This document shows positions 1-47,333 of a stretch of 49,911 nucleotides of DNA, one piece after another. The notes under the pieces are model-generated. The model was not told the origin of the DNA, did not search any database, and saw only the letters and a list, made by a program, of their open reading frames with translations. The DNA is from a phage, in the sequence record PZ445414.1; one strand, 5' to 3'. How positions within the stretch are numbered: position 1 is the stretch's first letter; each line of letters opens with the position of its first letter. Position numbers and translations under genes: made by a program.

Positions 1-1572
1 ATGCTGATATGGGAAGATTTAACAGTGGCGCAGAAACGCGCCATTAAAGAAATGAGTGAAATGTCATTTGAGAAGATGATCCGAATCTGGTTCCAGTTAC
101 TCCAGGGTCAAAAATTCCTTGGTAACTGGCATTTCAGCTATTTGTGCCATGAGGTGGAGAAAATCATTTCCGGCGAGTCGCAAAACGTGATCTTTAACAT
201 CACACCAGGCTCTGGTAAGACTGAGGTTTTCTCGATCCATATGTCGCCTTATGCGTCACTGAAAAGCAAGAAAGTGCGAAACCTAAACCTGTCATTCTCT
301 GATGGACTTGTCCAGCAGAACAGCAACCGGATCAAAGAAATTATAGGCTCTCCAGAGTGGCAGGAGTTATGGCCTGGCAAGCTGGCAAAAGCAAGCGCGA
401 AAGATCTGATTGTTCAGGACGGCAACGGCAAGGTTAAATTGCAGGTCAACTCTCGCTCCATCGGCGGACAGGTAACGGGTTTGCGTGGCGGCTATATGGA
501 TGATGGGTTTACCGGAATGTTGGTGCTTGACGATCCAGATAAACCTGACGACATGTTTTCAAAGGTGCGGCGCGAAGCGATTCACAACCGCTTAAAAAAC
601 ACCGTCCGATCTCGTCGAATGAAGGACACAACGCCTATTGTGATGGTTCAGCAGCGGCTACACGTCAACGATTCGACGTGGTTTATGACTAGCGGCGGCA
701 TGGGTGGCATTGAGTTTAAAGTTGTGAGCATTCCGGCACTGGTCACGAAAGAGTATGGCGATTCACTCCCTGATTGGTTAAAACCAGAGTTTGAGCGTGA
801 CGTGCTGAGCAGCGAGCCAGTTTACATTGACGGCGTGGCTCATTACTCATTCTGGCCTGCAAAGGAGAGTGCAAAGGACTTGCTCGCGCTACGCGAAGCG
901 GATCCGTATACTTTTGCGTCTCAGTACCAGCAGCAGCCGATAGCGCTGGGTGGTAACGTATTCAAGGTGGATTGGTTCCAGTTTTACGGCGACGGCGAAA
1001 AATGCACGCTGCCGAAACCGGATCGCTTTGAATATACGTTTATCACTGGCGATACGGCGCAGAAAGCCGGAGAGCTTAACGACTACTCTGTTTTCTGTTA
1101 TTGGGGCATGTTCAAGAATCGCGTTTACTTCATTGACGGCATCCGTGGAAAGTGGGAGGCTCCAGATCTTGAAACCAATTTCAAGGCGTTTGTCAATCAA
1201 TGCTGGAAGCGTAATAAAGAGTGCGGAAGCTTGCGACGGATCCACATAGAGGACAAAGCGAGCGGTACGGGTCTGATTCAGGGGGCGCAAAAGAGCTTGC
1301 CTATTGATATAAATCCCGTTCAGCGTAGTACGGACAAAGTTACCCGCGCAATGGATGCCGCTCCAGTTATGCGAGCCGGACGCGTTGCGCTGCCAGAGAG
1401 TCACCCGATGTTAAACGAGATTCTCGCAGAGGTAGCAGCTTTCACTTTCGACGACTCGCACCCGAACGACGATATCGTAGATAACATCGTTGATGCGGTT
1501 AACGTTGAAATGAACCTGGCAGACGATCCAGTAGCGCGAATGAAAAAGCTTGCTGGGCTACGGAAGAAATAG
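1..1572 (+). CDS. terminase large subunit (start coincides with window edge)
   Basis: 523-aa ORF; P-loop-like NITPGSGKTE near N-terminus, Walker-B-like LVLDDPDKPDD, acidic nuclease-like C-terminal half; directly follows TerS if the window is circularised. Confidence 0.8.
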   Translation: MLIWEDLTVAQKRAIKEMSEMSFEKMIRIWFQLLQGQKFLGNWHFSYLCHEVEKIISGESQNVIFNITPGSGKTEVFSIHMSPYASLKSKKVRNLNLSFSDGLVQQNSNRIKEIIGSPEWQELWPGKLAKASAKDLIVQDGNGKVKLQVNSRSIGGQVTGLRGGYMDDGFTGMLVLDDPDKPDDMFSKVRREAIHNRLKNTVRSRRMKDTTPIVMVQQRLHVNDSTWFMTSGGMGGIEFKVVSIPALVTKEYGDSLPDWLKPEFERDVLSSEPVYIDGVAHYSFWPAKESAKDLLALREADPYTFASQYQQQPIALGGNVFKVDWFQFYGDGEKCTLPKPDRFEYTFITGDTAQKAGELNDYSVFCYWGMFKNRVYFIDGIRGKWEAPDLETNFKAFVNQCWKRNKECGSLRRIHIEDKASGTGLIQGAQKSLPIDINPVQRSTDKVTRAMDAAPVMRAGRVALPESHPMLNEILAEVAAFTFDDSHPNDDIVDNIVDAVNVEMNLADDPVARMKKLAGLRKK

Positions 1573-1587
1573 CACGAATTGCTAAAA
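1568..1587 (+). promoter_or_regulatory. conserved box AATAGCAC-N5-GCTAAAA (copy 1) with TACAAT 5 nt downstream
   Basis: aatagcacgaattgctaaaa; overlaps TerL stop TAG. Confidence 0.5.
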
Positions 1588-1602
1588 GCGTGTACAATGA
1601 AG

Positions 1603-1628
1603 GCTGGACTTTTCCAGCCTTTTTTATT
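1603..1628 (+). terminator. hairpin + T-tract between TerL and portal
   Basis: ggctgga cttt tccagcc tttttt. Confidence 0.5.
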
Positions 1629-1643
1629 ATGGGAGATCAGATA

Positions 1644-2918
1644 ATGACCGAGAAAACAAAACTCGTTAAGGCTGACGGCTACAACGAGATCTTTAAGGGA
1701 GAGCAGCGAGTAGAAACGCCATTTTACATGCAGGGCGGAGTTGCGAAGCAGAGTCTTGCGACATTCTACGAGCGTGACGGGATGGCAAAGCGAATCATCG
1801 ACGTGATCCCGGAGGACATGGTTACGCCAGGCTTTAACGTTGACGGCGTGAAAGACGAGGCAGCATTCCGCTCTTTGTGGGATGAAAAGAAGCTAAACGC
1901 TAAAATCATTGACGCGCTTTGCTGGTCGCGCTTATTTGGCGGCTCCGCTATTGTCGCAGTTATCAACGATGGGCGCATGTTGAAATCTCCAGTTAAAGAG
2001 GGAGCGCCACTTGAAGATATTCGCGTTTATGACCGATTCCAGATCCGAGTTGAGAAGCGAGAAACAAACGCGCGTAGCGTGCGATACGGCGAGCCTGTTT
2101 TGTACACCATCATGCCAGGCGGCGAGATTCCAGAGTATCAGGTGCATTACACGCGAATCTGCATTATTGACGGAGAGCGCTTACCTAACGAGCAGCGCCG
2201 GAAAAATGATGGATGGGGCGCGTCAGTCCTCAACAAAAAGCTGATTGAAGCAATCCACGATTACAACTATTGTGAGGAGTTAGCAACTCAGCTTTTACGA
2301 CGCAAGCAGCAAGCAGTTTGGAAAGCTAAAGGACTCGCGGATTTGTGCGACGATGAAGAAGGCGTGTCGGCGGCGCGGCTGCGATTGGCTCAAGTTGACG
2401 ACGAGGGCGGCGTTGGTCGGGCAATCGGCATTGACGCAACGGACGAGGAATACGAGGTTCTTAACTCTGATATTTCCGGCGTAGACACTTTCCTTGAGAA
2501 GAAAATGGATCGCATCGTTTCGCTTACTGGCATCCATGAAATCATCTTGAAGAACAAAAACACCGGAGGCGTTAGCGCAAGCCAAAACACCGCGCTTGAT
2601 ACATATCACAAGCTAATTGAGCGCAAGCGCAAAGAGGACTACAAGCCGATCCTGGAGTTCCTCTTGCCATTCATGATCGCGGAGCAAGAATGGTCTATTT
2701 CGTTTGATCCGCTTTCGGTTCCAAGTAGCAAAGACCAGGCTGAGATCTTGAATAAAAACATTGAATCGATCAGTAAGGCGATTGAAGGTCAGTTTATGGA
2801 TGTTGAGGAAGGACGCGACACATTGCGCTCTATCGCTCCGTCTCTTAAACTGAAAGACGGCAACAAAATCAAGCTACCGGAGCCGGAGCAGGAGCCGGAG
2901 CCAGGAACGGAGGTTTAA
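1644..2918 (+). CDS. portal protein (putative)
   Basis: ORF immediately after TerL; ATG at 1644 preceded by GGGAGA; ~424 aa; acidic C-terminus; position/size typical of portal. Confidence 0.6.
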   Translation: MTEKTKLVKADGYNEIFKGEQRVETPFYMQGGVAKQSLATFYERDGMAKRIIDVIPEDMVTPGFNVDGVKDEAAFRSLWDEKKLNAKIIDALCWSRLFGGSAIVAVINDGRMLKSPVKEGAPLEDIRVYDRFQIRVEKRETNARSVRYGEPVLYTIMPGGEIPEYQVHYTRICIIDGERLPNEQRRKNDGWGASVLNKKLIEAIHDYNYCEELATQLLRRKQQAVWKAKGLADLCDDEEGVSAARLRLAQVDDEGGVGRAIGIDATDEEYEVLNSDISGVDTFLEKKMDRIVSLTGIHEIILKNKNTGGVSASQNTALDTYHKLIERKRKEDYKPILEFLLPFMIAEQEWSISFDPLSVPSSKDQAEILNKNIESISKAIEGQFMDVEEGRDTLRSIAPSLKLKDGNKIKLPEPEQEPEPGTEV

Positions 2919-2921
2919 TCC

Positions 2922-3671
2922 ATGAAGGTAAAAGGAATCGTTAAACAGTGGCGATTCCCCGAAGCCAGCGAGCGGCAATTAAGCCGCTCCATTAAAGAGG
3001 CTGTAAGGGATCTGGTTGTGTTTATGCGCAGCAAAACAAAGGCGATGAAGTTTGACGCTACAGATCAGGAGATCAGCAGCGCAGAGGACGAGATCAAGGA
3101 GTTCGCAAAAGAGCTTGCGCTCTCCCTGATTGGTCTGCTTCCGGCGCTCGCGTCGGCTGTATACAAGTTCAACTCAAAACAGTGGGTTAATGTTGCGAAG
3201 TCAACCGGAGGGGCTAACAATCCAGTTATCATCCTGCTAATTGCAGTCGGAGCCAATCAGGGCGAGGAATGGTATAAAACTCTATACGGCGAGTGGTACA
3301 ACATGAGTGCAGCCTCGTTTGACAAGCTTTTCACCAACATAATTAACGACTGGTCTACGAACATACGCCAGGCTAATTTCACCGGAAAGAAAGCGGAGCA
3401 GGTGAACGAGATCGCGGAGCGTCGTTTCGCTGTTTACTCCTCATGGGCTGGCAATCGCGCAACGGGAATTATTGGATCGTGGAATAGCCGCCTTATGCGC
3501 CAGAGGTTGCTAGATGCTGGGGTGAATTCTTATTACTGGCATGGCGTCATGGATGAAAGGGAGAGATTGAAACACGTACTGCTAGAGGGTAAACTGATCT
3601 CACTTAATGAGATACACATCTTTCCAGGAGAGGAGTATGGTTGCAGATGTTGGGCGATTCCAAAATGGTAG
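2922..3671 (+). CDS. head morphogenesis / minor head protein (putative)
   Basis: 249-aa ORF with SD (GGAGG) directly after portal; gene order. Confidence 0.4.
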   Translation: MKVKGIVKQWRFPEASERQLSRSIKEAVRDLVVFMRSKTKAMKFDATDQEISSAEDEIKEFAKELALSLIGLLPALASAVYKFNSKQWVNVAKSTGGANNPVIILLIAVGANQGEEWYKTLYGEWYNMSAASFDKLFTNIINDWSTNIRQANFTGKKAEQVNEIAERRFAVYSSWAGNRATGIIGSWNSRLMRQRLLDAGVNSYYWHGVMDERERLKHVLLEGKLISLNEIHIFPGEEYGCRCWAIPKW

Positions 3672-3682
3672 AGGAGAATTGA

Positions 3683-4798
3683 ATGAAAAAGGTACAGCGT
3701 TTTGATAGCGTTCAGGTGAAAGCAAAGATTGACGAGCACGGTTTTCTTGTAGACCGTCCGATTGTTGCCCGTATCGGCTTGCAGGTTTACAAAACTCCGT
3801 TTGGGGAGCGTAGAGAGTTTCGCCCTGCATCGGAGGTTTTTAAGGCTGACTCATTGGCTACGTTTTCCGGCAAGCCTGTCACAATCGGTCATGTAACGGT
3901 TACGCCGGAGAATGCAAAAGAGGTTGTAGTTGGTGCGTGTGCTGGCGCTGGCGTGCCAAACGGGATCGGCGTTGAGGTTCCGTTGAGCATTTACGACAAG
4001 CGAGCCATTCAGAGCGCGAAGAAAAAACAGACTGCGGAGTTATCGGTTGGCTACACCTCAGTTGATATTGATAAACCAGGCTGGGGGAATAATGCCACTG
4101 GTGAGTATTTCTTTGATGAAGATATGCCTGAGGGCTGGAAAGCTGACTCGGATGATTGGGTGCGATTCGATGCGGTTCAAACGAATATAAGCGTGAATCA
4201 TATCGCTATGGTGTTCAAAGGCCGCGCAGGTATCGCAAAATTAAATCTTGATAGCGAACAGGAATTCCCGTATCATGACGAGGAATTTTCAAACAAAGAG
4301 GATGAAGTTATGACCGTAAAAATCAAACTGGACGGCGCGGTAGAGTTTGACGTGCCAAAAGAGGTAGCAGCTCACATCAACGCGATCACCGCAAAAGCAG
4401 ATGCAGCAACCGCAAAAGCTGACGGCCTGGAAGCGGAGCGTGATGCACTGAAAGCAAAAGTAGACGGCATTCCGGCACAAATCGAGGCTGCGGTTGCTAA
4501 GGCAAAAGCTGATGCAGAGGCGCACGCCGAACTGGTTGCGATTGCTGGTGAGGCTGGCGTTAAGTGCGACGGCCTGGACGCAAAAGCGATCAAAGTTGCC
4601 TACGTCAAAGAGGTTACTGGCGCTGACATCGCAGAGAAAACCGACGCTTATATTGATGCTGCGTTTGATCTGGCGAAAAACTCTGATAAAATGGCAGCAC
4701 AGCGCAAAGCCATTAAAGGCGATGCAGAGAAGCAAGAGAAGCAAGACGGCGAAGATAAACCGCTGAATCCTGCGGCTCGTTTGGCTAAAGTACAGTAA
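3683..4798 (+). CDS. scaffolding protein, possibly with N-terminal protease-like domain
   Basis: 371 aa; strong SD (AGAGGAG); C-terminal half Ala/Lys/Glu-rich predicted coiled coil typical of scaffolds; position before capsid genes. Confidence 0.45.
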   Translation: MKKVQRFDSVQVKAKIDEHGFLVDRPIVARIGLQVYKTPFGERREFRPASEVFKADSLATFSGKPVTIGHVTVTPENAKEVVVGACAGAGVPNGIGVEVPLSIYDKRAIQSAKKKQTAELSVGYTSVDIDKPGWGNNATGEYFFDEDMPEGWKADSDDWVRFDAVQTNISVNHIAMVFKGRAGIAKLNLDSEQEFPYHDEEFSNKEDEVMTVKIKLDGAVEFDVPKEVAAHINAITAKADAATAKADGLEAERDALKAKVDGIPAQIEAAVAKAKADAEAHAELVAIAGEAGVKCDGLDAKAIKVAYVKEVTGADIAEKTDAYIDAAFDLAKNSDKMAAQRKAIKGDAEKQEKQDGEDKPLNPAARLAKVQ

Positions 4799-4810
4799 GG
4801 AGAAATAAAT

Positions 4811-5296: not shown

Positions 5297-5301
5297 TATA
5301 C

Positions 5302-5328: not shown

Positions 5329-5338
5329 GGAGGTGAAA

Positions 5339-6058: not shown

Positions 6059-6077
6059 CATAAAAACCTATTGCACG

Positions 6078-6096
6078 TTTAACAAAAAGTGCTATC
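6078..6096 (-). promoter_or_regulatory. conserved box, inverted orientation, in leader of major capsid gene
   Basis: fwd tttaacaaaaagtgctat = reverse complement of ATAGCACTTTTTGTTAAA. Confidence 0.45.
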
Positions 6097-7869: not shown

Positions 7870-8240
7870 TGAATTATGCTAACATTGCACGAATGGCTAA
7901 ATCTGGAATCGCGTTTTTCAGTGATCGTAATGGGGTGTTTAAGCTTATCACTAGCGGAGGCGGCGTTGAGATTGTCGGCGGAGTTGAGGTTGAAAAGCCG
8001 GAGCAATCCACAACAATTAAGGGGCTTATTCGAGCGCCAAAAGTCCGAGAGGTTGACGGAGAAACAATCCGTGTGACGGACAAGCTGGGAGTGTTTGACG
8101 CAGACATTGAGATCAAGAATGGGAACCAGATTGAGGTTGACGGTGAGCGATATGTCGTTGTTGAGGCAAGACCAATCAGACCAACGGGGCTAACGGTTGC
8201 TTATCGCCCGATACTGCGGAGGGTTGCGGTTCATGGCTAA
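7869..8240 (+). CDS. head-tail joining / head closure protein (putative)
   Basis: ATG overlaps upstream stop (TAATG coupling); 123 aa; gene order. Confidence 0.4.
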   Translation: MNYANIARMAKSGIAFFSDRNGVFKLITSGGGVEIVGGVEVEKPEQSTTIKGLIRAPKVREVDGETIRVTDKLGVFDADIEIKNGNQIEVDGERYVVVEARPIRPTGLTVAYRPILRRVAVHG

Positions 8241-9755: not shown

Positions 9756-9800
9756 TGATGTAATATTACCCCAACATTTAACCACTAAGGAGAAACACCA

Positions 9801-10115
9801 ATGGCTAAAATGAAATTGACTCTTGCCCCGCTTCCAGACTTCAAACTTCCAGTTAAATTTGTGTTGCCGGATGGTAGCGAGCAAAAAATTGTGTTTACCG
9901 TTAAGCATAAAAAGGCAAGCGAGATTCAAGAGCTTTACCAGAAAGAAGGTATTAAAGATCCTGAATTCATCATGAATGTTGCAGTAGGTTGGGATCTGGA
10001 AGAAGAATTCAACGAAGAAAACGCGCAACTGTTAGTTGATTATTATCCTAGCGCGGCGCTGGCTCTCATGGGATCTTATTTAAGCGCTCTGGCAGGGCAG
10101 CGAGTAAAAAACTAA
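9801..10115 (+). CDS. tail assembly chaperone G-like
   Basis: 104 aa between major tail and tape measure; ends VKN* with slippery A_AAA_AAC immediately before stop. Confidence 0.7.
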   Translation: MAKMKLTLAPLPDFKLPVKFVLPDGSEQKIVFTVKHKKASEIQELYQKEGIKDPEFIMNVAVGWDLEEEFNEENAQLLVDYYPSAALALMGSYLSALAGQRVKN

Positions 10116-13773: not shown

Positions 13774-13801
13774 ACGCAATTATCACAAAGGAGGTCTATC
13801 A

Positions 13802-15872: not shown

Positions 15873-15895
15873 CCCCGCATTGCGGGGTTTTTTAT
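15873..15895 (+). terminator. intrinsic terminator after gpI-like gene
   Basis: ccccgca ttgc ggggg-like stem ccccgc/gcgggg + ttttttatt. Confidence 0.75.
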
Positions 15896-15899
15896 TGGT

Positions 15900-15908
15900 T
15901 GCTATAAT
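15900..15908 (+). promoter_or_regulatory. extended -10 element TGCTATAAT immediately after terminator
   Basis: tgctataat; upstream of J. Confidence 0.45.
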
Positions 15909-15918
15909 GCAACCTCAA

Positions 15919-15938
15919 AACAGCACAAATTGTTAAAA
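15919..15938 (+). promoter_or_regulatory. box variant (AACAGCAC-N5-GTTAAAA) in leader of J gene
   Basis: aacagcacaaattgttaaaa downstream of TGCTATAAT. Confidence 0.4.
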
Positions 15939-15953
15939 CTGGAGGCCAAAATT

Positions 15954-19897: not shown

Positions 19898-19953
19898 TTG
19901 TATTTCCTCGTTTCGTTAAGTTGAAATGAGTATAGCCCCATTTGCGGGGCTTG

Positions 19954-19972
19954 TTTTAGCAATTCGTGCGGT
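19954..19972 (-). promoter_or_regulatory. box variant upstream of secreted-protein gene
   Basis: minus-strand CCGCACGAATTGCTAAAA followed by hairpin, TATACT and conserved leader. Confidence 0.4.
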
Positions 19973-20939: not shown

Positions 20940-20975
20940 AATGCCACCTCTCTAGTTTGCTTATTAAGTGCATTT

Positions 20976-21004
20976 AATATACAGGCGCGGCGTAATCATT
21001 TCAA
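20976..21004 (-). promoter_or_regulatory. sigma70-like promoter TTGAAA-N17-TATATT (minus strand)
   Basis: reverse complement of 20976-21004; upstream of minus gene starting 20939. Confidence 0.55.
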
Positions 21005-21125
21005 TGGCAAATGCAAAACCTTACCTTAATTGTTCTTTTTGTTTCTCTGTGTTCTCGATTGCACCCACCGCAGAATCGCACAACGTTTTAGAACAGAAAA
21101 AACAAAATAAATCATCTATAATATA

Positions 21126-21157
21126 TAATAAAATCAATAGTTTAGTTTATATGTATT
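21126..21157. repeat. conserved ~30-bp AT-rich element containing IHF-consensus-like AATCAATAGTTTA (copy A)
   Basis: taataaaatcaatagtttagtttatatgtat; near-identical copy at 40555. Confidence 0.5.
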
Positions 21158-21388
21158 TGTATGTTGTTATTTATTGTTTCCAATGTTTCAGTGTTAATTG
21201 ATGTACTGGCTTTCTTTAGTCTGGATATCTCTATTATCCATTTGATGTGTGTATTTATATAAACCCCACCGCAAATCCGTGAACAATGAAACAAAAAATA
21301 ACGACGTTTAAAATCATGCACTTAAGAGCTGATTTTGTTATCGGGGTTGAAAGATGTGTTTCGAGAACAGAAAAAACAATTGAAGGTA

Positions 21389-21416
21389 TTGACTAAACGC
21401 CACAAATGGCTACAAT
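21389..21416 (+). promoter_or_regulatory. sigma70-like promoter TTGACT-N16-TACAAT for recombination module
   Basis: ttgact 21389-21394, tacaat 21411-21416; ~30 nt upstream of exonuclease ATG. Confidence 0.6.
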
Positions 21417-21446
21417 GCACGTATACCAACACACAGGAGCGAAAGA

Positions 21447-22505: not shown

Positions 22506-22524
22506 ACAGCACAAATAGCTAAAC
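22505..22524 (+). promoter_or_regulatory. box variant (AACAGCAC-N5-GCTAAAC)
   Basis: aacagcacaaatagctaaac upstream of 22547 ORF. Confidence 0.35.
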
Positions 22525-22546
22525 AAATGAAAATGGAGGTGTTATA

Positions 22547-22876
22547 ATGCCTCCATCAAGTAAACAAAGAGAGGATATCAGAATGGAAAACATCACCAAT
22601 GAAGAAATGATTAGCGCGGCATGTGAAGCTCATATGCGTATTTTTGTACACCGCGTCACTTTCGCCATGAAGGACTTTGTTAAGCCGCTTAATCCGGCAG
22701 ACGGCGAAGAAGAAATGAAATACATCCGTGACGTTATGGAGGCGGTTGACAACGTTGTAGCCACTGCGCTGATGGTCAAAGATAATCCAGAGGCAATCAA
22801 GATGATGAAGGAATCCACCGACAGGCTGATCAATCAGCTTATCGAGATCCACAACGGCGGCGAAGTAAAACACTAA
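22547..22876 (+). CDS. hypothetical protein
   Basis: 109-aa ORF with SD GGAGGTG; between exonuclease and Erf. Confidence 0.45.
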   Translation: MPPSSKQREDIRMENITNEEMISAACEAHMRIFVHRVTFAMKDFVKPLNPADGEEEMKYIRDVMEAVDNVVATALMVKDNPEAIKMMKESTDRLINQLIEIHNGGEVKH

Positions 22877-26073: not shown

Positions 26074-26092
26074 AATAGCACGTTTTGTTAAT
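26074..26092 (+). promoter_or_regulatory. conserved box in leader of (minus-strand) tail fibre gene, inverted relative to gene
   Basis: aatagcacgttttgttaa between TGCTATAAT (minus) and tail-fibre SD. Confidence 0.45.
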
Positions 26093-26102
26093 GACAAGTC
26101 GG

Positions 26103-26111
26103 ATTATAGCA
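26103..26111 (-). promoter_or_regulatory. extended -10 element TGCTATAAT (minus) upstream of tail fibre gene
   Basis: fwd attatagca; follows primase terminator. Confidence 0.45.
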
Positions 26112-27131: not shown

Positions 27132-27170
27132 TAAAAAAATCGCGTAGCCGGATGATACCAGATACGCGAT
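27132..27170 (-). terminator. terminator-like hairpin after HTH gene (minus)
   Basis: fwd aaaaaaa atcgcgta ... tacgcgat (8-bp stem, 16-nt loop). Confidence 0.4.
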
Positions 27171-27177
27171 CTTTGAT

Positions 27178-27618
27178 TTAGCTATTTGTGCTGTTTATGA
27201 AGTCCGACTCTTTCACTACGCGCAGCATTTCGTATCGGTCGCATTTCGTCGTTAACGCTTTGCCGTTTGAGTCAAATCTCAGATCTGGACGGCAGAATGA
27301 AGCGCGATAGCCCTTGCAGCCGTTTCGCTTATAGTCGGCGTGAACCTTTTCGGCTCCAGAAACGGAAATCATTCCGCGCTTGCGCCACTGCTGGATAACC
27401 TGGTGAGTAACCTTTAAGCGCCTTGTCATTTCTGCCTGAGATCCGTAATATTCGCAAACGGCATCCAGACGAGCACGCAATCCGGCTTTGACTTCATCCT
27501 TTAGAACGTAGTAGCCTGTTTTGCGCTTGCGCTTTTTCTTGTCTTTACCGCGCTTTACACCGTTGTTGCCATTGATTGTGCGCTTGTCAATTTCGCCAGT
27601 TGATGCAGCAATTTTCAT
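27178..27618 (-). CDS. HTH DNA-binding protein (Cro/YdaS-like, putative regulator)
   Basis: 146 aa from ATG 27618 (SD GGAGG); basic N-terminus; HTH-like SQAEMTRRLKVTHQVIQQWRKRGMIS. Confidence 0.45.
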   Translation of the reverse strand: MKIAASTGEIDKRTINGNNGVKRGKDKKKRKRKTGYYVLKDEVKAGLRARLDAVCEYYGSQAEMTRRLKVTHQVIQQWRKRGMISVSGAEKVHADYKRNGCKGYRASFCRPDLRFDSNGKALTTKCDRYEMLRVVKESDFINSTNS

Positions 27619-27629: not shown

Positions 27630-27649
27630 GATAGCACTTTTTGCTAAAA
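27630..27649 (+). promoter_or_regulatory. conserved box upstream of helicase gene
   Basis: gatagcactttttgctaaaa; TATTAT at 27669-27674. Confidence 0.5.
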
Positions 27650-27706
27650 ACACTCAAAACGTAGGAGCTATTATACATTCAATCGGTTAACGAATAAAGG
27701 TTAAAA

Positions 27707-29709: not shown

Positions 29710-30126
29710 ATGGTTACTGACAAAGGCGATTATCTGGAATATTACGAGAGGGATCCGAGCGATACGCGCAAGGAAGATTCTCACCAGGTTGATTGTGTGG
29801 CGTGGTTGCGCCACCACTACCCACACTTGCTCTTTTGGCACACTGTAAACGAGGGGAGCAAGACAATCACCGCCGCGCTGCGTGACGAACAGGCCGGATT
29901 GCTAAAGGGCGTATCAGACTTTGTTATCCTGATTGGTTCTGGTAAATACCCGTTTGCAGCCATAGAGCTAAAGCAAGCCAACAAATCAGGCAAGCGCAAG
30001 GCTTCACCAGTCAGCGACAACCAGAAAGCTTTCTTGAGCAGGGTTAGACACTTGGGAGGTTTCGCAGCCGTTTGCTATGGCGTGAAGCAATTCAAGCTTG
30101 CAATTGCAGATCTCTTGCAGGAATAG
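29710..30126 (+). CDS. VRR-NUC domain nuclease
   Basis: 138 aa; motif DFVILIGSGKYPFAAIELKQ (D..E.K) typical of VRR-NUC; start ATG right after helicase stop. Confidence 0.6.
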   Translation: MVTDKGDYLEYYERDPSDTRKEDSHQVDCVAWLRHHYPHLLFWHTVNEGSKTITAALRDEQAGLLKGVSDFVILIGSGKYPFAAIELKQANKSGKRKASPVSDNQKAFLSRVRHLGGFAAVCYGVKQFKLAIADLLQE

Positions 30127-30141
30127 CACTTTTTGCTAAAA
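30122..30141 (+). promoter_or_regulatory. conserved box + hairpin + CATAAT upstream of lipoprotein gene
   Basis: aatagcactttttgctaaaa; inverted repeat ggcgca/tgcgcc; overlaps VRR-NUC stop TAG. Confidence 0.55.
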
Positions 30142-30198
30142 CAGGCGCAAAGGAATGCGCCATAATGCACCCAACGAAACAAACACGGAGAATTAACC

Positions 30199-31583: not shown

Positions 31584-31602
31584 ATAGCACTTTTTGTTAA
31601 AA
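31583..31602 (+). promoter_or_regulatory. conserved box + hairpin + CATAAT
   Basis: aatagcactttttgttaaaa; hairpin gcccg...cgggc. Confidence 0.55.
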
Positions 31603-31659
31603 ATGCCCGGCGAAAGTCGGGCATAATTATTTCCAACGAAAACCACTGAGGAAAACGAA

Positions 31660-31851: not shown

Positions 31852-32099
31852 TGAAGGTTGAGCAAGGCCGCGAGGCCGTTTGGAATCACGCCAAAGAAAC
31901 CGGAATGGCAGACGATATAGCACGAATTGCTAAAATATTTGATCTGGCTGATGTTAGTATTATCAGCAACGGGAAAATGACTTACTTGCACGAGAGGCCG
32001 CGCAAAATGCACCGCGTGCCAGCAAACCCGACAAAAATTGACTTCAAAGAAGCAATGGCAAAAATCAGAGAGCCGAAAAAGTATTACAAAGGAGAATAG
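31851..32099 (+). CDS. hypothetical protein
   Basis: 82 aa; TAATG coupling to upstream ORF. Confidence 0.45.
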   Translation: MKVEQGREAVWNHAKETGMADDIARIAKIFDLADVSIISNGKMTYLHERPRKMHRVPANPTKIDFKEAMAKIREPKKYYKGE

Positions 32100-36820: not shown

Positions 36821-36876
36821 CTTAAAGTCTCCTTGTTGGTTGACCTGTATTATAGGTCAACCATCTTACAGCCTTT

Positions 36877-36896
36877 TGGCAATTCGTGCTATTTTA
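36877..36896 (-). promoter_or_regulatory. conserved box upstream of P-loop ATPase gene
   Basis: minus AAAATAGCACGAATTGCCAA; TATAAT inside hairpin GGTTGACC/GGTCAACC. Confidence 0.5.
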
Positions 36897-37705: not shown

Positions 37706-37763
37706 TTGTTTTATCCTCAATTCGTTTCGTTGAGAAGATAATAGCGGATCTTATCGACCCGCT

Positions 37764-37784
37764 TTTAACAAAAAGTGCTATTTT
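37764..37784 (-). promoter_or_regulatory. conserved box (minus)
   Basis: minus AAAATAGCACTTTTTGTTAAAA; overlaps MTase stop TAG; TATTAT and leader CTCAACGAAACGAATTGAGGA follow. Confidence 0.55.
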
Positions 37785-39011: not shown

Positions 39012-39067
39012 TCGTTTATCCTCGCTCGTTGTTGATGGCGCTACTATACCAGGACTCAGCGCCGGAG

Positions 39068-39087
39068 TTTTAACAAAAAGTGCTGTC
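39068..39087 (-). promoter_or_regulatory. box variant (minus)
   Basis: minus GACAGCACTTTTTGTTAAAA; hairpin with TGgTATAGT downstream. Confidence 0.45.
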
Positions 39088-39746: not shown

Positions 39747-39803
39747 TTTTTGATTCCTCAGTTGTTTTGTTGAGGCAATGATAGCGCATCGCCTCTGATT
39801 GGT

Positions 39804-39823
39804 TTTAACAAAAAGTGCTATTC
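39804..39823 (-). promoter_or_regulatory. conserved box (minus)
   Basis: minus AATAGCACTTTTTGTTAAAA. Confidence 0.5.
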
Positions 39824-39927: not shown

Positions 39928-40191
39928 TCAGTTCTTAACCTGGCTCATGCGATCCATTTCGCGATACCAGACGATCAAATCTTCCAGCGCCTGGAACAAG
40001 TCAGCTTTCTTTGTCTCTTTAATGGTGTCACATACTAGGTTGATATCACATTCCAGCACACCGAGATACTCACCATACTGGCGGCAACCTTCAATGTTGT
40101 CTGCCTTGCTGGTGCGGCGATTGTTACGCTGCGCACGGCAAATCAGGCTGATGATGTTGCTGGTTTCTTTGCTGGTGATGTGATAGGTCAT
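39928..40191 (-). CDS. hypothetical protein
   Basis: 87 aa from ATG 40191 (MTYHITSKE) placed by conserved leader/SD; box at 40248-40267. Confidence 0.45.
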   Translation of the reverse strand: MTYHITSKETSNIISLICRAQRNNRRTSKADNIEGCRQYGEYLGVLECDINLVCDTIKETKKADLFQALEDLIVWYREMDRMSQVKN

Positions 40192-40247
40192 TTCGTTTTC
40201 CTCATTTCGTTTCGATGAATGCATTATGCCAAATCCAGATCACGTAG

Positions 40248-40267
40248 TTTTAGCAAAAAGTGCTATT
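40248..40267 (-). promoter_or_regulatory. conserved box (minus)
   Basis: minus AATAGCACTTTTTGCTAAAA; CATAAT and leader CATCGAAACGAAATGAGGA follow. Confidence 0.55.
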
Positions 40268-40280
40268 CAATCGGTAGTTA

Positions 40281-40390
40281 GATGATTTGGTGATTTTCTG
40301 ACCTGCATTTTGATGGTTAGTTTGATGTGCGTCAGCTTTTGACGAGATTTGATGATTGTTGATTAGATTTGATTGAATTTGATTGTGGGA
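40281..40390. repeat. iteron-like array of ATTTGAT(G/T) repeats
   Basis: TTTGAT at 40309, 40321, 40348, 40358, 40367, 40378 with ~10-12 bp spacing inside 690-bp non-coding AT-rich region. Confidence 0.55.
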
Positions 40391-40554
40391 ATCAGCATGG
40401 TCTGACGATGCCGTTTTTGCGCTCTCGAAAACTCCGCTCTGTTATCTTCTGTTTACACTCGTTTCCTCTTGTTACCGAAAGTGCGGTGGCGTAGTTTGTT
40501 CGCGTTTTTCGCGTAGCAGAAACAAAAAAAACTTTTAATCCCCCTATAAACAAC

Positions 40555-40586
40555 TAATAAAATCAATAGTTTATTTTATATATATT
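40555..40586. repeat. conserved ~30-bp AT-rich element containing IHF-consensus-like AATCAATAGTTTA (copy B)
   Basis: taataaaatcaatagtttattttatatatat; matches WATCAANNNNTTR. Confidence 0.5.
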
Positions 40587-40851
40587 ATATTTGTTTTCAC
40601 TACGTTATACTTGTTCCACATGGTATGGGGTGGTTATGGGATTTTATTATTGGTGGTATTGGTTAATTTATAGGCATGTTCCGCTCAGGATGTGTGCGAC
40701 TCATCATTTCGTTGTGGTTGCTTTGGGTGACATATACATATTGATTATGGCCTCCGAAAAAACTGTAACAGCTGTAACATGCAAAAAACAGAATTTATCA
40801 TCATGCAAATCAACAACTTGCGATAAATTTTGTTTTTCGGCTCAAAAAAAA

Positions 40852-40880
40852 CTTGTGGAAACCGATTGTAACATGCATAA
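40852..40880 (+). promoter_or_regulatory. sigma70-like promoter TTGTGG-N17-CATAAT for rightward early array
   Basis: followed by leader CACCGAAACGAACAAACGGAGG and ATG 40914. Confidence 0.5.
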
Positions 40881-40913
40881 TGCACACCGAAACGAACAAA
40901 CGGAGGTAAAACG

Positions 40914-41602: not shown

Positions 41603-41608
41603 TTGGTA

Positions 41609-41628
41609 AATAGCACTTTTTGTTAAAA
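41609..41628 (+). promoter_or_regulatory. conserved box + hairpin + ATAATA
   Basis: aatagcactttttgttaaaa; hairpin gcccc...ggggc. Confidence 0.55.
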
Positions 41629-41686
41629 CTGCCCCGCGCGAGTGGGGCATAATAGCCTCAACGAAACGAATTGAGGAGATTGCAAA

Positions 41687-42751: not shown

Positions 42752-42810
42752 GTAGTTGGCACAATGAGCACGTCATGCAATTCTACCGCCAACGGATAAA
42801 GAAAATCCTC

Positions 42811-42830
42811 AATAGCACGAATTGCTAAAA
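42811..42830 (+). promoter_or_regulatory. conserved box + hairpin containing TATAGT
   Basis: aatagcacgaattgctaaaa. Confidence 0.55.
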
Positions 42831-42891
42831 CACCAGATCGGGGTTGCGCTATAGTAACCCCATCGAAACGAAACACACTGAGGAGCACAAA

Positions 42892-43059: not shown

Positions 43060-43062
43060 TAC

Positions 43063-43305
43063 ATGCTATCAATTCGCAACTGGTTTATGCGCTTCATCGG
43101 GAAAGAGGTTGAGGCTTTCGGCTACAACATTCCGGCAAACTTCAAGCGTGCTTGTCCTGGCAATGCCAGCGGGGTTTATTGGGAAATGCCAGACGGCACA
43201 TACTGGTTCACGGTTATTTCTGGAATGCCGATCCAGGTTAGTGAGCGCGACTATGAGCGCGGAACGTGGTTTACAGCAATGCAAGAGGTCGGGGAGGAAT
43301 TTTAA
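43063..43305 (+). CDS. hypothetical protein
   Basis: 80-aa ORF; Trp/Phe-rich. Confidence 0.4.
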   Translation: MLSIRNWFMRFIGKEVEAFGYNIPANFKRACPGNASGVYWEMPDGTYWFTVISGMPIQVSERDYERGTWFTAMQEVGEEF

Positions 43306-43841: not shown

Positions 43842-44046
43842 GATCGTAACATGGATTTTCGGAGCGGTGATTGCCGCTCTATCCGTCCTGCTGGTGCTCA
43901 TAATTTGGGCGGCGGTATACATGACAGCGAGCGACGATTACACCTGCGAGAAAACAGGCCGCCAAGTTCTTGTTATGATTCCGTCTGGTAAAGTCATGGT
44001 TCCTATCATGCAGGACGAAACTATTTGCAAGAGGGTTGAGAAATGA
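43834..44046 (+). CDS. small membrane protein
   Basis: 70 aa; N-terminal TM helix IFGAVIAALSVLLVLIIWAAV. Confidence 0.4.
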   Translation: MDKIVTWIFGAVIAALSVLLVLIIWAAVYMTASDDYTCEKTGRQVLVMIPSGKVMVPIMQDETICKRVEK

Positions 44047-44258
44047 TTGTGACGCACGATGTAGAGCCAGGCGCGAGCACTGCGCGTGATATGATTGCCG
44101 GAATGCCGCCAAAATCGCACAGAATGGTACGTGTACGCGGTTATAATTTCAATGTCAGCCAAACGCTCAAGGAAATTTTAGCCTTGCCAGAAGTCGATAC
44201 AGCGCTTGTGGGAGTGCATACAAATGAATATGTTTCTTTCCACATTGTGACAAAGTGA
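44043..44258 (+). CDS. hypothetical protein
   Basis: 71 aa; ATGA coupling. Confidence 0.4.
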   Translation: MIVTHDVEPGASTARDMIAGMPPKSHRMVRVRGYNFNVSQTLKEILALPEVDTALVGVHTNEYVSFHIVTK

Positions 44259-44265
44259 GGTTGAC

Positions 44266-44475
44266 GTGATTCTTACAGTAGCTTTTGCCAATCCGCGAGC
44301 GTGCAACATCTTTGGATTCAGGGAGAGGATGCGCATTGAGGCCGAGCGCAACGATAAAGGCATCCTTTACGTCAAATCGCCAAAAACTGGCGTTGCAATG
44401 ATGGTCAAGGAGAATGGAGGCCGGATGTTCATTCGCTCAATGTCAGGCCAGGATCTGGTGACTTTCACAAAATAG
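44266..44475 (+). CDS. hypothetical protein
   Basis: 69 aa; GTG start after GAGG; stop TAG embedded in next box. Confidence 0.35.
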   Translation: MILTVAFANPRACNIFGFRERMRIEAERNDKGILYVKSPKTGVAMMVKENGGRMFIRSMSGQDLVTFTK

Positions 44476-44490
44476 CACGAATTGCTAAAA
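44471..44490 (+). promoter_or_regulatory. conserved box; TATAAT at 44510-44515
   Basis: aatagcacgaattgctaaaa; overlaps upstream stop TAG. Confidence 0.55.
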
Positions 44491-44547
44491 CGCGCTCCGA
44501 TAGGGGCGCTATAATGCACCCATACCAAGCAACGAGAGGAAAACAAA

Positions 44548-44778
44548 ATGAAATATCAAGTATTCAAGGCAGTAGACAAAATCGACGGCGACTTGTCAAT
44601 TTTCGTTTTCGACGAGAATGATAATTACACTGTGATTTTTTATTCTGATTACCTGCTTGGCCGAGTCATTGATCGAATTAAAAATGGGGATGGTTGCGAC
44701 TTGTCGGCGGACTCAATCGAATGCCCGCGCCGAAATGACATGGTAAATCCTGTTTTACTGTGCGAGATTGAAGCATGA
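44548..44778 (+). CDS. hypothetical protein
   Basis: 76 aa; box promoter with TATAAT at 44510-44515 upstream. Confidence 0.45.
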   Translation: MKYQVFKAVDKIDGDLSIFVFDENDNYTVIFYSDYLLGRVIDRIKNGDGCDLSADSIECPRRNDMVNPVLLCEIEA

Positions 44779-44966
44779 AGTGCATCCGGTCAACATACGA
44801 TCTATTCAAGGCGGGTGAGAGCTACCCGCTAATTGAGAAAGGCCAGGCTGGGCGGTTCACGGTGTACGAATACACCGACTCGCAGGGTTGGGTTTACACG
44901 TTCGGCCTAGACGAGAATCTTGAGCAAGAAACAGACGGCAATTTCATTAAATTTACAAAGGAGTAA
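44775..44966 (+). CDS. hypothetical protein
   Basis: 63 aa; ATGA coupling. Confidence 0.4.
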   Translation: MKCIRSTYDLFKAGESYPLIEKGQAGRFTVYEYTDSQGWVYTFGLDENLEQETDGNFIKFTKE

Positions 44967-44970
44967 CAAG

Positions 44971-45201
44971 ATGATTGAGATCAAATTCGATGGCAACTCT
45001 AAGCGATTCAACGGCGTACAGATCCACAAAGATGCAACACACGCGGTAGCTGGTCGCAATTTCGGCACTTATTTTAAGCTAAATGGCGAATGGTATTTCA
45101 CAGTTTTCTCTGGCTACGCGCTGAAAGCAACGGTTGCGTCTCATGACTTTGATATCCGCGATCACATCAGAGACGACGCAAAAATCACAGAGTTTAAATA
45201 G
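44971..45201 (+). CDS. hypothetical protein
   Basis: 76 aa from ATG 44971 after AAAGGAG. Confidence 0.4.
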   Translation: MIEIKFDGNSKRFNGVQIHKDATHAVAGRNFGTYFKLNGEWYFTVFSGYALKATVASHDFDIRDHIRDDAKITEFK

Positions 45202-45216
45202 CACTTTTTGCTAAAG
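45197..45216 (+). promoter_or_regulatory. conserved box; TGgTATAGT in hairpin loop
   Basis: aatagcactttttgctaaag. Confidence 0.55.
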
Positions 45217-45280
45217 ACTTTCCGCGAGGCCATTGGTATAGTGGCCTCATTGAAAGCAATCACGCAAACAGGAGATAAAA

Positions 45281-45438
45281 ATGCGTAACTTTGAGAAAAT
45301 CCGCACTAACAAAGACCGTCGCGCCGCTGGTGAGATTGTGGACTCACACCGTCGACGCAAGAAAACCCAAAAGCGCGGGAGTGAGGCAAAGCGCATGGAT
45401 TGGGATCAACTTCAAACTAACTACAAGGCAGGTCGATA
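45281..45438 (+). CDS. small basic protein (52 aa)
   Basis: ATG 45281 after box promoter, leader and SD CAGGAG; Arg/Lys-rich; preferred over out-of-frame track ORF 45291..45533. Confidence 0.45.
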
Positions 45439-46005
45439 ATGAAAAAGGTAATTATTCTCAACGCGCCACCAGGGGCTGGCAAAGACACCATCGGAAATCT
45501 GATTTGCAAGCATGCTCCGCAATACGTTGTTAAGCGCTCATTCAAAGAGCCGATGTTCAAGATCGCAAAGGCAATGTTGGGTGATTATCGTTTCGGTCTG
45601 TTTATGCAAGCGTATGACGACAGGGGGCAGAAAGAAAGAGCGCAATCTTTCCTGAATGGTAAATCACCTCGCCAGTTTATGATCTGGATTAGCGAGGACG
45701 TGATAAAACCTCAATTTGGGGATCAGTATTTTGGCGTGGTAATGGCTGAGGCCGTGCGAGATAGCCAGGTTCCGGTTGTCATTACTGACGGCGGTTTCCC
45801 CGATGAAGTTAAACCACTGGTCAGTGCTGGGATTCAGGTAAACATTTGCCGCCTACATCGTGACGGCTACACGTTTGCCGGAGATAGCAGGGATTATCTC
45901 AATCTTGAGGGCTACCATCACCGAATCGTGACGCGAGATTACATCCTGGTAAATGGCGATCCGATGCATACAATGATTCAGATCTGTGAGGATATTTTGG
46001 AATGA
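45439..46005 (+). CDS. P-loop kinase (putative nucleotide/polynucleotide kinase)
   Basis: 188 aa; Walker A NAPPGAGKDT at N-terminus; TAATG coupling. Confidence 0.5.
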   Translation: MKKVIILNAPPGAGKDTIGNLICKHAPQYVVKRSFKEPMFKIAKAMLGDYRFGLFMQAYDDRGQKERAQSFLNGKSPRQFMIWISEDVIKPQFGDQYFGVVMAEAVRDSQVPVVITDGGFPDEVKPLVSAGIQVNICRLHRDGYTFAGDSRDYLNLEGYHHRIVTRDYILVNGDPMHTMIQICEDILE

Positions 46006-46105
46006 TAACCACACCACACGATCCAAAAGAGCCGTTTGACTTCCACAAGGCCGCCGTTATCGGCCTTACAATCCTAACTGTCATTTACACTGTACGAGGT
46101 ATTTT

Positions 46106-46303
46106 ATGGCTGTTAACACACTAAAACGAATTGGCGTTATCATGCTAATTATCGGAGGGTCATTGCTAACAGAGCCAGGTTTTGCAAACACGGCTGGAAG
46201 TATGGCGCTGTTAATCGGCGGTCTTATTGGCGGCTACATGGACGGCGTAAAGGCTGGGCGGCGTGAGGCGTTCGGCGGTGAAGATAAAAATCCGATTAAA
46301 TAG
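46106..46303 (+). CDS. small membrane protein
   Basis: 65 aa; two hydrophobic Gly-rich segments; SD GAGG. Confidence 0.4.
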   Translation: MAVNTLKRIGVIMLIIGGSLLTEPGFANTAGSMALLIGGLIGGYMDGVKAGRREAFGGEDKNPIK

Positions 46304-46318
46304 CACGAATCGCTAAAA
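46299..46318 (+). promoter_or_regulatory. conserved box variant (TCGCTA)
   Basis: aatagcacgaatcgctaaaa; TGgTAAAGT downstream. Confidence 0.5.
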
Positions 46319-46384
46319 CTTCCGCGAGGGCATTTGGTAAAGTGTCCTCATTGAAGCAAAGCAACCAATCAAGGAGATAACGAA

Positions 46385-46663
46385 ATGGCTACTATCCGCA
46401 AACACCTGGTAAACGCATTCGAGAACGTTGGCGAGCGCTACGGCTGGGATGATGGACTGAAAACACCATACACGGCACGCCGCCAGGGTTTCAACTCACT
46501 GCGCGAGTGGGCGCGATGCATGGCGGCTAACTACATGCCGGAGAACTGGCAACTCATGCCTGACTCACTGCGCGAAATGATCGAAGATGCACAGGCGGCA
46601 GGTGTGCCACTCACTCAGCATGATTTTGACGATTACGCAGAGGAAGAAATTTTATGCTGGTGA
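46385..46663 (+). CDS. hypothetical protein
   Basis: 92 aa; box promoter (variant) and leader upstream; SD AAGGAG. Confidence 0.45.
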   Translation: MATIRKHLVNAFENVGERYGWDDGLKTPYTARRQGFNSLREWARCMAANYMPENWQLMPDSLREMIEDAQAAGVPLTQHDFDDYAEEEILCW

Positions 46664-46848
46664 AAATCCGTACTGATTATGAGGACTCGCCGTGGATAGC
46701 GGCGGGTAAGATTTACGAGGCGGTATTGGTTAAAACAGGCCGCTACGCAGGAACGTATAAGTTTATTGGGGAGTTAGGCTCCCCGTGCTACACAAGGCTT
46801 GAGCGTTCAATTCACATCGGCGGGAAAGATTGGGAGATTGTAGAATGA
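46654..46848 (+). CDS. hypothetical protein
   Basis: 64 aa; overlaps neighbours by a few nt. Confidence 0.4.
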   Translation: MLVKIRTDYEDSPWIAAGKIYEAVLVKTGRYAGTYKFIGELGSPCYTRLERSIHIGGKDWEIVE

Positions 46849-47318
46849 AATATTATGTGCGTCCTACTGTAGATGGTGAAAACTTTACTGCTGGCAAACT
46901 CTACGAGATCCAGCATTGCTTTGGAACTGGTCGCGTTATCGTGCTCAACGATGCAAAAGAGGAAACCATTGTGCGTTGCGATGGAATTGTGTCGGCTCGC
47001 CTGGACTGGCGCGGAAAGTTTGATCGCGTGAACATTCCAGGCGCTCAAGAAGCTATGGAGTCGGCGCAATCCGCTGCGGAGTATATGCTGAAAGTTGGGA
47101 TTGGTCGCCATGGCGGCTGGCAGCACAGCAAGATCGGGCAGGTGACTATCAGCGACGGGCAAATCTACGCAAGTGCATCGCCTCGCAACGAGTACGTCGA
47201 AGTGCTGGAACAGTTACGCGAAATTCTGCGCGTGCCGGAGGGTGAGAATATCCTGACTCATGCGAAAGTTGTGCGCGTGCTGGCTGATGGGTTAATCAAC
47301 CTCCAGAAAACGAAATAG
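46845..47318 (+). CDS. hypothetical protein
   Basis: 157 aa from ATG 46845. Confidence 0.45.
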   Translation: MKYYVRPTVDGENFTAGKLYEIQHCFGTGRVIVLNDAKEETIVRCDGIVSARLDWRGKFDRVNIPGAQEAMESAQSAAEYMLKVGIGRHGGWQHSKIGQVTISDGQIYASASPRNEYVEVLEQLREILRVPEGENILTHAKVVRVLADGLINLQKTK

Positions 47319-47333
47319 CACTTTTTGCTAAAA
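47314..47333 (+). promoter_or_regulatory. conserved box; TGgTATAGT in hairpin loop
   Basis: aatagcactttttgctaaaa. Confidence 0.55.

Follow-up and report, generated by a model that had tools for sequence, protein, structure and literature searches.

A recurrent box in Escherichia phage IsaakIselin and other T1-like phages is probably a class II marbox promoter element

We analysed a window of 49,911 bp whose sequence is, at 100% identity, that of Escherichia phage IsaakIselin (Bas10, MZ501077.1; rotated, so that position x of the window is position x+533 of that record), a member of the Drexlerviridae (Tempevirinae, Henuseptimavirus), and took the gene context from its GenBank annotation. The window contains many copies of a 20-bp box which, judged from its sequence and placement, is probably a class II marbox promoter element in an unexpected place. 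18 of these boxes lie in predicted promoters of early or middle genes, and on balance we favour the reading that these are class II promoters which would be activated by the host regulators Rob, MarA and SoxS.

We searched the window with the pattern AATAGCAC-N5-GCTAAAA, allowing ≤ 2 mismatches, and found 19 copies of the box, against an expectation of 0.14 ± 0.38 from shuffled sequence. The inverted-repeat core TAGCA-N5-TGCTA was matched 17 times (1.55 expected), and variants with 3 mismatches are present at 6077(-), 26074(+) and 39068(-). Every copy listed in an earlier first-pass annotation of this DNA was recovered, 0–3 nt from the position given there, as were two copies absent from its list: 27176(-), at the primase promoter, and 31916(+), within bas10_0041. 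The direction of the box is that of local transcription, and the TAG within it ends the upstream gene in at least six cases, at 1570, 30124, 44473, 45199, 46301 and 47316, as that annotation had noted for several boxes. Its proposal that the box marks early transcription units also held up, in that the box reads as a putative protein-binding promoter element.

Taken with a shift of one base, the box is ATAGCAC-(TTTTT/GAATT/AAATW)-G(C/T)TAAAAc. For the marbox, to which MarA, SoxS and Rob bind, the consensus reportedly given by Martin et al. in 1999 is AYnGCACnnWnnRYYAAAYn. [quoted passage not shown] The phage boxes scored 14.0–17.5 bits and the window contains 24 sites of ≥ 14 bits, against 1.1 expected; the exact chance of ≥ 16 bits is 6e-7 per position. 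Most phage boxes (16–17.5 bits) are nearer to the optimum than the host sites which we scored from the E. coli K-12 sequence, micF (14.7 bits) and the marRAB marbox (12.8 bits). The box therefore fits the marbox, a 20-bp asymmetric site, both by consensus and by ChIP matrix.

The first-pass annotation had taken the box for the symmetric site of a dimer. We examined conservation per position in 75 boxes from five phages, which were picked with the pattern of that annotation because it is neutral with regard to symmetry, and found that variation among them tracks the degeneracy of the marbox and not palindromic symmetry. GCAC and AAA were without variation, marbox position 2 was Y (T/C), the centre was W (A/T) and RYY was GCT, GTT or GCC. 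An inverted repeat does exist, as had been claimed, but its arms are of 5 bp only and six strongly conserved positions lie outside it, five of which are marbox positions. The members of a mirror pair are also unequal, with an information content of 2.0 for G at position 5 vs 0.8 for C/T at position 15, and there is no complementarity between the two flanks (AA and AAAA). The ChIP consensus GCACTAATTGCTAAA itself holds GCA...TGC, so a partial palindrome comes with any marbox that is optimal. Among 93 sites in five Drexlerviridae phages, 73 were in forward class II geometry and 3 in its mirror image, which is not the behaviour of an operator with two-fold symmetry and orientation-independent function, and a symmetric dimer site was not supported. 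A forward orientation is what has been described for class II sites of MarA, SoxS and Rob (PMC12052159, PMC6900184, PMC10268841).

The central five bases are restricted to TTTTT, GAATT or AAAT(T/A) here, in T1 and in phage TLS (PMC11447400). The marbox consensus does not call for so narrow a choice, which may reflect DNA bending, minor-groove width or a second constraint. We also considered a site for Lrp, as the outer halves of TAGCA-N5-TGCTA fit the Lrp consensus; this candidate was dropped because the marbox alignment, shifted by one base, also accounts for the flanks and the centre.

The distance from the box to the -10 hexamer can be counted from the 20-mer of the first-pass annotation, from the 15-mer of the marbox (d in Table 1) or from the 20-bp marbox, which is shifted by one base. 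The spacing had been described as variable (8–25 bp), which we did not find: in 18 copies the -10 begins 18–20 nt past the 20-mer, at exactly 19 nt in 15/18, 18 nt in two and 20 nt in one. Counted from the 15-mer this is 20 nt in 15 promoters, 19 in two and 21 in one, and counted from the 20-bp marbox it is 18 nt (17–19). The hexamers are of sigma70 type (TATAAT, CATAAT, TATAGT or similar) and were called at a -10 score threshold of 5, which 0.6% of the hexamers in the window reach. The 15-mer distance equals that at micF, the model class II promoter in cryo-electron microscopy complexes of Rob, SoxS and RamA, for which, with TAGAAT as the -10, GCACTGAATGTCAAA as the marbox and the 5' end of the RNA as annotated, we counted 20 nt. 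The box thus overlaps the -35 position with a predicted centre at about -40.5, and class II sites are known to overlap the -35 with a centre near -41 (PMC10268841, PMC8811837, PMC12052159).

No -35 was recognisable beside these sigma70-type -10 hexamers: the match to TTGACA 16–18 nt upstream of the -10 was 2.39/6, vs 2.45 at random positions. Class II promoters also lack a -35, with an average of 1.9 matches in Salmonella (PMC10268841). A scan of the early region for sigma70 -35/-10 pairs gave 28 hits, against 24.3 expected, and detected none of the box promoters. TTGCTA, within the box, was rejected as a -35 because TTGnTA stands 22 nt (21–23) from the -10 and the sigma70 range is 16–18 nt.

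All 18 cassettes share one layout, which runs from the stop codon of the upstream gene through the box, a 19-nt spacer, the -10, nnnCnCATCnAAACnAA and a Shine-Dalgarno sequence to the ATG, with 52–65 nt (mostly 55–57) between box and start codon. The best-conserved position of the leader is an A, the seventh nt after the -10; sigma70 promoters normally start about seven nt past the -10. From this predicted +1 to about the 17th nt past the -10 the leaders carry the motif C-A-T-C-g-A-A-A-C-g-A-A (for example at 30173-30185, 41660-41672 and 47365-47377), which is common to the promoters of five phages from different subfamilies; it may serve as an initial transcribed sequence, to enhance translation or as a target of an RNase. 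It should also be noted that the annotated ATG of bas10_0059 (40224) sits within the -10, CATAAT(G), of its own promoter (window 40191-40228, - strand). An in-frame ATG 33 nt further on, after GAGGAA, fits the cassette layout, so the annotated start of this gene is probably too early.

We confirmed the GC-rich hairpins which had been reported near the -10: at 14/18 promoters a hairpin with z < -2 either ends at the -10 or encloses it, and the mean z is -3.4. Marginal spacer hairpins were found at 31920 (z -1.9) and 39083 (z -1.3), and none at the helicase promoter at 27631 (spacer 27651-27668, z +1.1) and the leftward promoter at 40247 (spacer 40229-40246, z +0.2). These two hairpin-free promoters are also the two without a co-directional upstream gene. 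As the hairpin is lost only where there is no such gene, it would appear to serve the upstream transcript and not the promoter. Two of the spacer hairpins pass a scan for terminator-like structures, and the T1 annotation calls several of the orthologous hairpins rho-independent terminators.

We then scanned related and control genomes for sites of ≥ 14 bits (numbers in forward class II geometry in brackets). There were 24 (18) in IsaakIselin, 21 (15) in T1 (Tunavirinae), 17 (13) in Klebsiella phage mtp17 (Webervirus), 13 (12) in Msk (Braunvirinae) and 19 (16) in A120 (Tempevirinae), vs 1 (0) in T7, used as a control, and 0 (0) in a Vibrio phage with a related terminase. Across the phages the length of the spacer is constant whereas its sequence varies. 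The first-pass annotation had made its reading of the box depend in part on conservation of position in T1-like genomes, and our scan found such conservation for the helicase, primase and post-exonuclease cassettes and for the inverted copy before the capsid gene. A scan of IMG/VR with the exact pattern gave, among the matches listed, multi-copy contigs of 41–52 kb, mostly 46–52 kb; T1-like genomes are expected at 46–52 kb. A120 (MG065671.1, unverified) is labelled a Campylobacter jejuni phage, and this host label looks doubtful as the record is a Tempevirinae genome with 16 marbox promoters of enterobacterial type.

Table 1 Predicted box promoters and other features of the window. PWM, score in bits; d, distance in nt from the marbox 15-mer to the -10; z, hairpin z.
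Feature	Coordinates	Strand	Sequence elements	PWM	d	Remarks
bas10_0024 promoter	19929..19972	-	marbox 19953-19972 (ACCGCACGAATTGCTAAAAC); -10 TATACT 19929-19934	17.3	20	z -4.7
bas10_0028 promoter	22506..22548	+	marbox 22506-22525; -10 TATAAT 22543-22548	16.7	19	orthologous cassettes: T1 31446, A120 28687, mtp17 16578
DNA primase gene promoter	27152..27194	-	marbox 27175-27194; -10 TATCAT 27152-27157	16.7	19	
DNA helicase gene promoter	27631..27674	+	marbox 27631-27650; -10 TATTAT 27669-27674	17.5	20	orthologous sites: T1 36447, Msk 24594, A120 34839, mtp17 13597
bas10_0036 promoter	30123..30166	+	-10 CATAAT	17.5	20	box TAG is the bas10_0035 stop
bas10_0040 promoter	31584..31627	+	-10 CATAAT	16.0	20	z -5.6; spacer hairpin CCCGGC-GAAA-GUCGGG also terminator-like (31603-31624)
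Promoter inside bas10_0041, upstream of bas10_0042	31917..31960	+	-10 TAGTAT	17.3	20	orthologous intragenic site in T1 at 40311
Putative helicase bas10_0048 promoter	36849..36892	-	GCC-variant marbox; -10 TATAAT	16.9	20	z -4.4; -10 lies in hairpin loop
bas10_0051 promoter	37738..37781	-	-10 TATTAT	16.0	20	terminator-like hairpin 37763-37743
bas10_0054 promoter	39043..39086	-	-10 TATAGT	16.0	20	
bas10_0057 promoter	39778..39821	-	-10 TATCAT	16.0	20	
bas10_0059 promoter	40223..40266	-	-10 CATAAT	17.5	20	first of leftward early unit
bas10_0062 promoter	41610..41653	+	-10 CATAAT	16.0	20	
bas10_0067 promoter	42812..42855	+	-10 TATAGT	17.3	20	
bas10_0073 promoter	44472..44515	+	-10 TATAAT	17.3	20	
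bas10_0076 promoter	45198..45242	+	-10 TATAGT	17.5	21	
bas10_0080 promoter	46300..46343	+	-10 TAAAGT	14.0	20	
bas10_0083 promoter	47315..47358	+	-10 TATAGT	17.5	20	same cassette: mtp17 44500, T1 1453
bas10_0033, putative helix-turn-helix transcriptional regulator	27178..27618	-				weak sub-threshold Pfam YdaS/Cro/MerR helix-turn-helix; phrog_2856 'transcriptional regulator' 1e-72
Portal-side box	1569..1588	+		17.3		at TerL stop codon; not class II geometry
Major capsid box	6076..6095	-		16.0		inverted, upstream of gene
J-like tail tip gene leader box	15920..15939	+		16.8		about +2 to +21 past extended -10 promoter TGCTATAAT
Lateral tail fibre leader box	26074..26093	+	AAT for AAA	7.5		weak, inverted; 3 mismatches
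Late extended -10 promoter	13775-13790		TGCTACAAT			
Late extended -10 promoter	15895-15910		TGCTATAAT			
Late extended -10 promoter	26095-26110	-	TGCTATAAT			
Late extended -10 promoter	49340-49355		TGTTATAAT			
High-scoring marbox-like site	4442-4461					in coding sequence or over start codon
High-scoring marbox-like site	7884-7903					in coding sequence or over start codon
High-scoring marbox-like site	9792-9811					in coding sequence or over start codon
High-scoring marbox-like site	1187-1206	-				in coding sequence or over start codon

The repeat itself is already known. A re-annotation of phage TLS in 2024 described 21 copies of a 21-nt direct repeat, aaATAGCACnnnTTGnTAAAA, which are oriented with transcription, stand some 76 nt upstream of a start codon and fall into A, T and G subgroups; the repeat was also noted in T1, Rtp and Rogue1, and only three sigma70-like promoters were found in TLS (PMC11447400). 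Its function was left open, with a stoperator-like, an enhancer-binding or a UP-like role as guesses (PMC11447400). In consensus, orientation, distance to the start codon and subgroups it is the same element as the present box. The fixed spacing to the -10 and the match to the marbox are not in that paper and come from the present analysis. In the literature which we searched, to which subscription journals are mostly external so that priority elsewhere is possible, no paper links the repeat or Drexlerviridae promoters to MarA, SoxS or Rob, and the marbox reading is absent; the KanT1 paper is silent on promoters.

We propose that the box is a near-optimal marbox or robbox in forward orientation, which would be bound by a monomer of an AraC-family activator through its two helix-turn-helix motifs and would stand in for the missing -35 of the 18 promoters. 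The activators would be those of enterobacterial hosts, MarA, SoxS and Rob, with RamA in Klebsiella and Enterobacter. An activator already present in the host would bind the GCAC and YTAAA half-sites, displace sigma70 region 4 from the -35 DNA, make contact with region 4 as well as with the alpha C-terminal domain, and recruit RNA polymerase to the -10. Rob is the likeliest candidate because it is constitutive and present at a high level, and MarA or SoxS may act under stress. Rob has been described as constitutive and abundant, and at micF it keeps sigma70 region 4 off the -35 (PMC9178005). Transcription would start at the conserved A seven nt past the -10, giving a leader of roughly 25 nt, (A)UCGAAACGAA...GAGGA. 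The spacer hairpin would belong to the 3' end of the co-directional transcript from upstream, either as a leaky terminator or as a stabiliser, and the cassette, from stop codon to start codon with box, hairpin, -10 and leader between them, would be packed into about 77 bp.

The closest parallel is offered by class II promoters of the micF type, which have in common with the phage promoters a 20-bp asymmetric GCAC-N8-AAA box whose centre is A/T-rich and which faces forward and overlaps the -35 position, as well as an equal distance from box to -10, no -35 and a normal sigma70 -10 (PMC10268841, PMC9178005, PMC8811837). The phage differs from the host in having 18 such promoters per 50 kb of a virulent genome, in using only three forms of the centre and in fusing the cassette to the hairpin of the upstream transcript. 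There is also a likeness to the middle promoters of T4 (MotA box, with sigma appropriation by AsiA), where an activator box containing TTTGCT replaces the -35 beside a normal -10. The MotA box is centred at -30, 11–13 bp from the -10, and its activator is phage-encoded, whereas here some 24 bp separate TGCT from the -10 and no phage-encoded activator was identified.

A phage-encoded protein of the MarA type was rejected as the activator. With the E. coli proteins MarA, SoxS and Rob as queries, tblastn found no similar protein in the phage (best E 0.44), a hidden Markov model of the three sequences found none among 601 six-frame open reading frames (best E 1.4), and Pfam found no AraC-type helix-turn-helix in ten early proteins of 92–188 aa. 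A phage-encoded binder of another kind might still serve the same promoter layout, and would be either a dimer of bas10_0033 on TAGCA-N5-TGCTA, which was the suggestion of the first-pass annotation, or an unrecognised small early protein, with the likeness to the marbox due to coincidence or mimicry; we regard this as unlikely. bas10_0033, which has a single helix-turn-helix, lies between the boxes at 27175-27194 and 27631-27650, the second of which, that of the divergent helicase promoter, falls within its own leader as in autoregulation, and its homologues share 57–73% identity in all four box-carrying relatives (T1, mtp17, Msk and A120). The inverted repeat, with its 5-bp arms and 10 bp from one half-site centre to the other, and conservation of the box in excess of the marbox consensus would both suit such a protein. 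However, a regulator which is present in all relatives does not discriminate between the hypotheses, nothing specific points to this one, and no relative of it was found in PDB. A dimer on the palindrome would leave its six conserved outside positions, with the five that belong to the marbox, to be explained, and a symmetric site needs no one-way orientation of 73 vs 3. An unrelated operator would reach ≥ 16 bits at only about 6e-7 per position and would have to share the micF spacing as well. The box is nearly invariant across subfamilies, whereas the regulator has diverged to 57% identity, and since almost all early units depend on the box an activator made by the phage would delay everything. 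We think the first-pass annotation was probably right in seeing an activator site and probably wrong on the binder and the symmetry.

Readings in which no activator is involved are less probable again. The box might be read by RNA polymerase directly, as a UP-like site for the alpha C-terminal domain or as a displaced -35, and this we hold to be improbable. It does have an A/T-rich centre and 3' end, between -50 and -31, and holds TTGCTA or TTGTTA. A UP element, however, is composed of A/T only, occupies -59 to -38 and lies upstream of a -35; the box has an invariant GCAC core, spans about -50 to -31 and has no -35 downstream of it, and the distance of 22 nt (21–23) from TTGnTA to the -10 is beyond the range of sigma70. 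A UP-like role was among those raised by the TLS authors (PMC11447400). More improbable still is a role of the box as a stoperator-like roadblock or as an RNA-level element, such as a processing site or hairpin, in polycistronic transcripts, the latter having been the alternative offered by the first-pass annotation. The boxes are intergenic and oriented with transcription, as in TLS (PMC11447400), a 5-bp hairpin can be formed by the box and some copies lie in late leaders. This would leave the fixed distance to the -10 unexplained. The hairpin of the box is weak (-3.7 to -1.0 kcal/mol), its variants are not compensatory, the box is upstream of the predicted start, and the covariance models of Rfam gave no match in the whole window at gathering thresholds; the box was rejected as an RNA hairpin for its weakness and its non-compensatory variants. 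With respect to stoperators of the mycobacteriophage L5 type, which are asymmetric repressor sites that stop elongation in a temperate phage, the box is likewise oriented with transcription, yet it is locked to a -10, and no lysogeny module is annotated in the phage, which we take to be virulent and to be without a repressor.

A near-perfect match to a host matrix together with the micF spacing is very unlikely to arise by chance, and it is this combination that leads us to favour activation by host Rob, MarA or SoxS. Several points weigh against this reading. T1-like phages grow well in plain broth, and we know of no report of rob, marA or soxS mutants which resist T1; an effect of their loss on T1 might be masked by redundancy and by basal activity of the promoters. 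Rob is largely sequestered and inactive without inducers (PMC10268841, PMC9178005), and MarA and SoxS are inducible, not constitutive (PMC9178005). Both the binding of a host protein and the activation have been deduced from sequence alone. The boxes are conserved past the marbox consensus, with A at position 3 and TT at positions 11–12, which could mean a second constraint or another binder, and a conserved phage helix-turn-helix regulator adjoins two boxes and accompanies boxes in each of the relatives that we examined.

We also examined the boxes at late genes, which are placed as the first-pass annotation had described: inverted upstream of the capsid gene, in the leader of the J gene, and inverted in the leader of the tail fibre gene. 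The portal-side box is followed, 5 nt past the 20-bp marbox (6 nt past the 15-mer), by TACAAT and then by a terminator hairpin before the portal gene, so the box covers the -35/spacer position of TACAAT, a repressive position; this order is kept in BHUENT9 and is degenerate in A120. The reverse complement of the capsid box gives an extended -10, TGcTATCAT, which faces the capsid gene, and its position and orientation are kept in T1 (15083(-)), A120 (12168(-)) and BHUENT9. For the J-leader box the GCAC half is conserved in BHUENT9 and A120, and the tail-fibre box, which is identical in BHUENT9, lies downstream of TGCTATAAT on the - strand. T1 has a forward box in its terS leader. MarA represses where a marbox overlaps core promoter elements, as at rob, purA and hdeA, and the portal, capsid, J and tail-fibre boxes would resemble these promoters in that they overlap the predicted -35, spacer, -10 or start, in varying orientation. 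At this minority of boxes the same protein may hinder RNA polymerase. As they sit where a bound protein would do so, the idea of the first-pass annotation that the regulator activates early and gates late transcription stays plausible.

Between TerL and portal (window 1589-1628), TACAAT stands directly before the hairpin GGCTGGA...TCCAGCC-T6, an arrangement conserved in BHUENT9 and A120. Transcripts from TACAAT would start within the stem and escape termination, and read-through from TerL would be stopped. The late units start with a strong terminator directly followed by an extended -10 promoter without an obvious -35 (Table 1), a second promoter type which is unlike the box promoters.

Four further high-scoring marbox-like sites of the window (Table 1) lie in coding sequence or over a start codon, where ATGGCTAAA encodes Met-Ala-Lys, without a -10 at the right distance. 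Conservation of the protein explains why the one in the prohead protease gene is found again in relatives, and sites of this kind are probably incidental. The window also has two long non-coding divergent regions. One, at 20940-21446 (507 bp), includes a promoter of the classical kind (TTGACT-16-TACAAT) for the exonuclease gene; the other, at 40225-40913 (689 bp), divides the two early arms.

T1 belongs to the seven classical T phages, and phages related to it abound in sewage, the gut and collections for phage therapy. If the box is a class II marbox it would close the gap on where the promoters of the T1 family lie, and the box cassettes are a set of compact, near-optimal promoters, putatively responsive to Rob and MarA. 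If they do respond, a virulent phage would depend on the stress and antibiotic-resistance regulon of its host for its early programme. Bile salts, antibiotics, salicylate and oxidative stress would then tune early expression, and growth of the phage would interact with inducers of MarA, SoxS and Rob (salicylate, paraquat, bile salts, dipyridyl), which bears on phage-antibiotic combinations. Dozens of optimal marboxes on replicating DNA would also soak up the regulators and weaken the efflux and porin response of the host, and this titration would free the late promoters which marboxes overlap (portal, capsid, J and tail fibre), acting as an early-to-late switch. We put forward only tentatively, as a possibility somewhat short of even, that the whole T1 family is without an early activator of its own and rests 12–18 promoters per genome on host MarA, SoxS, Rob or RamA, with titration of these regulators and the switch from early to late expression as part of the same arrangement.

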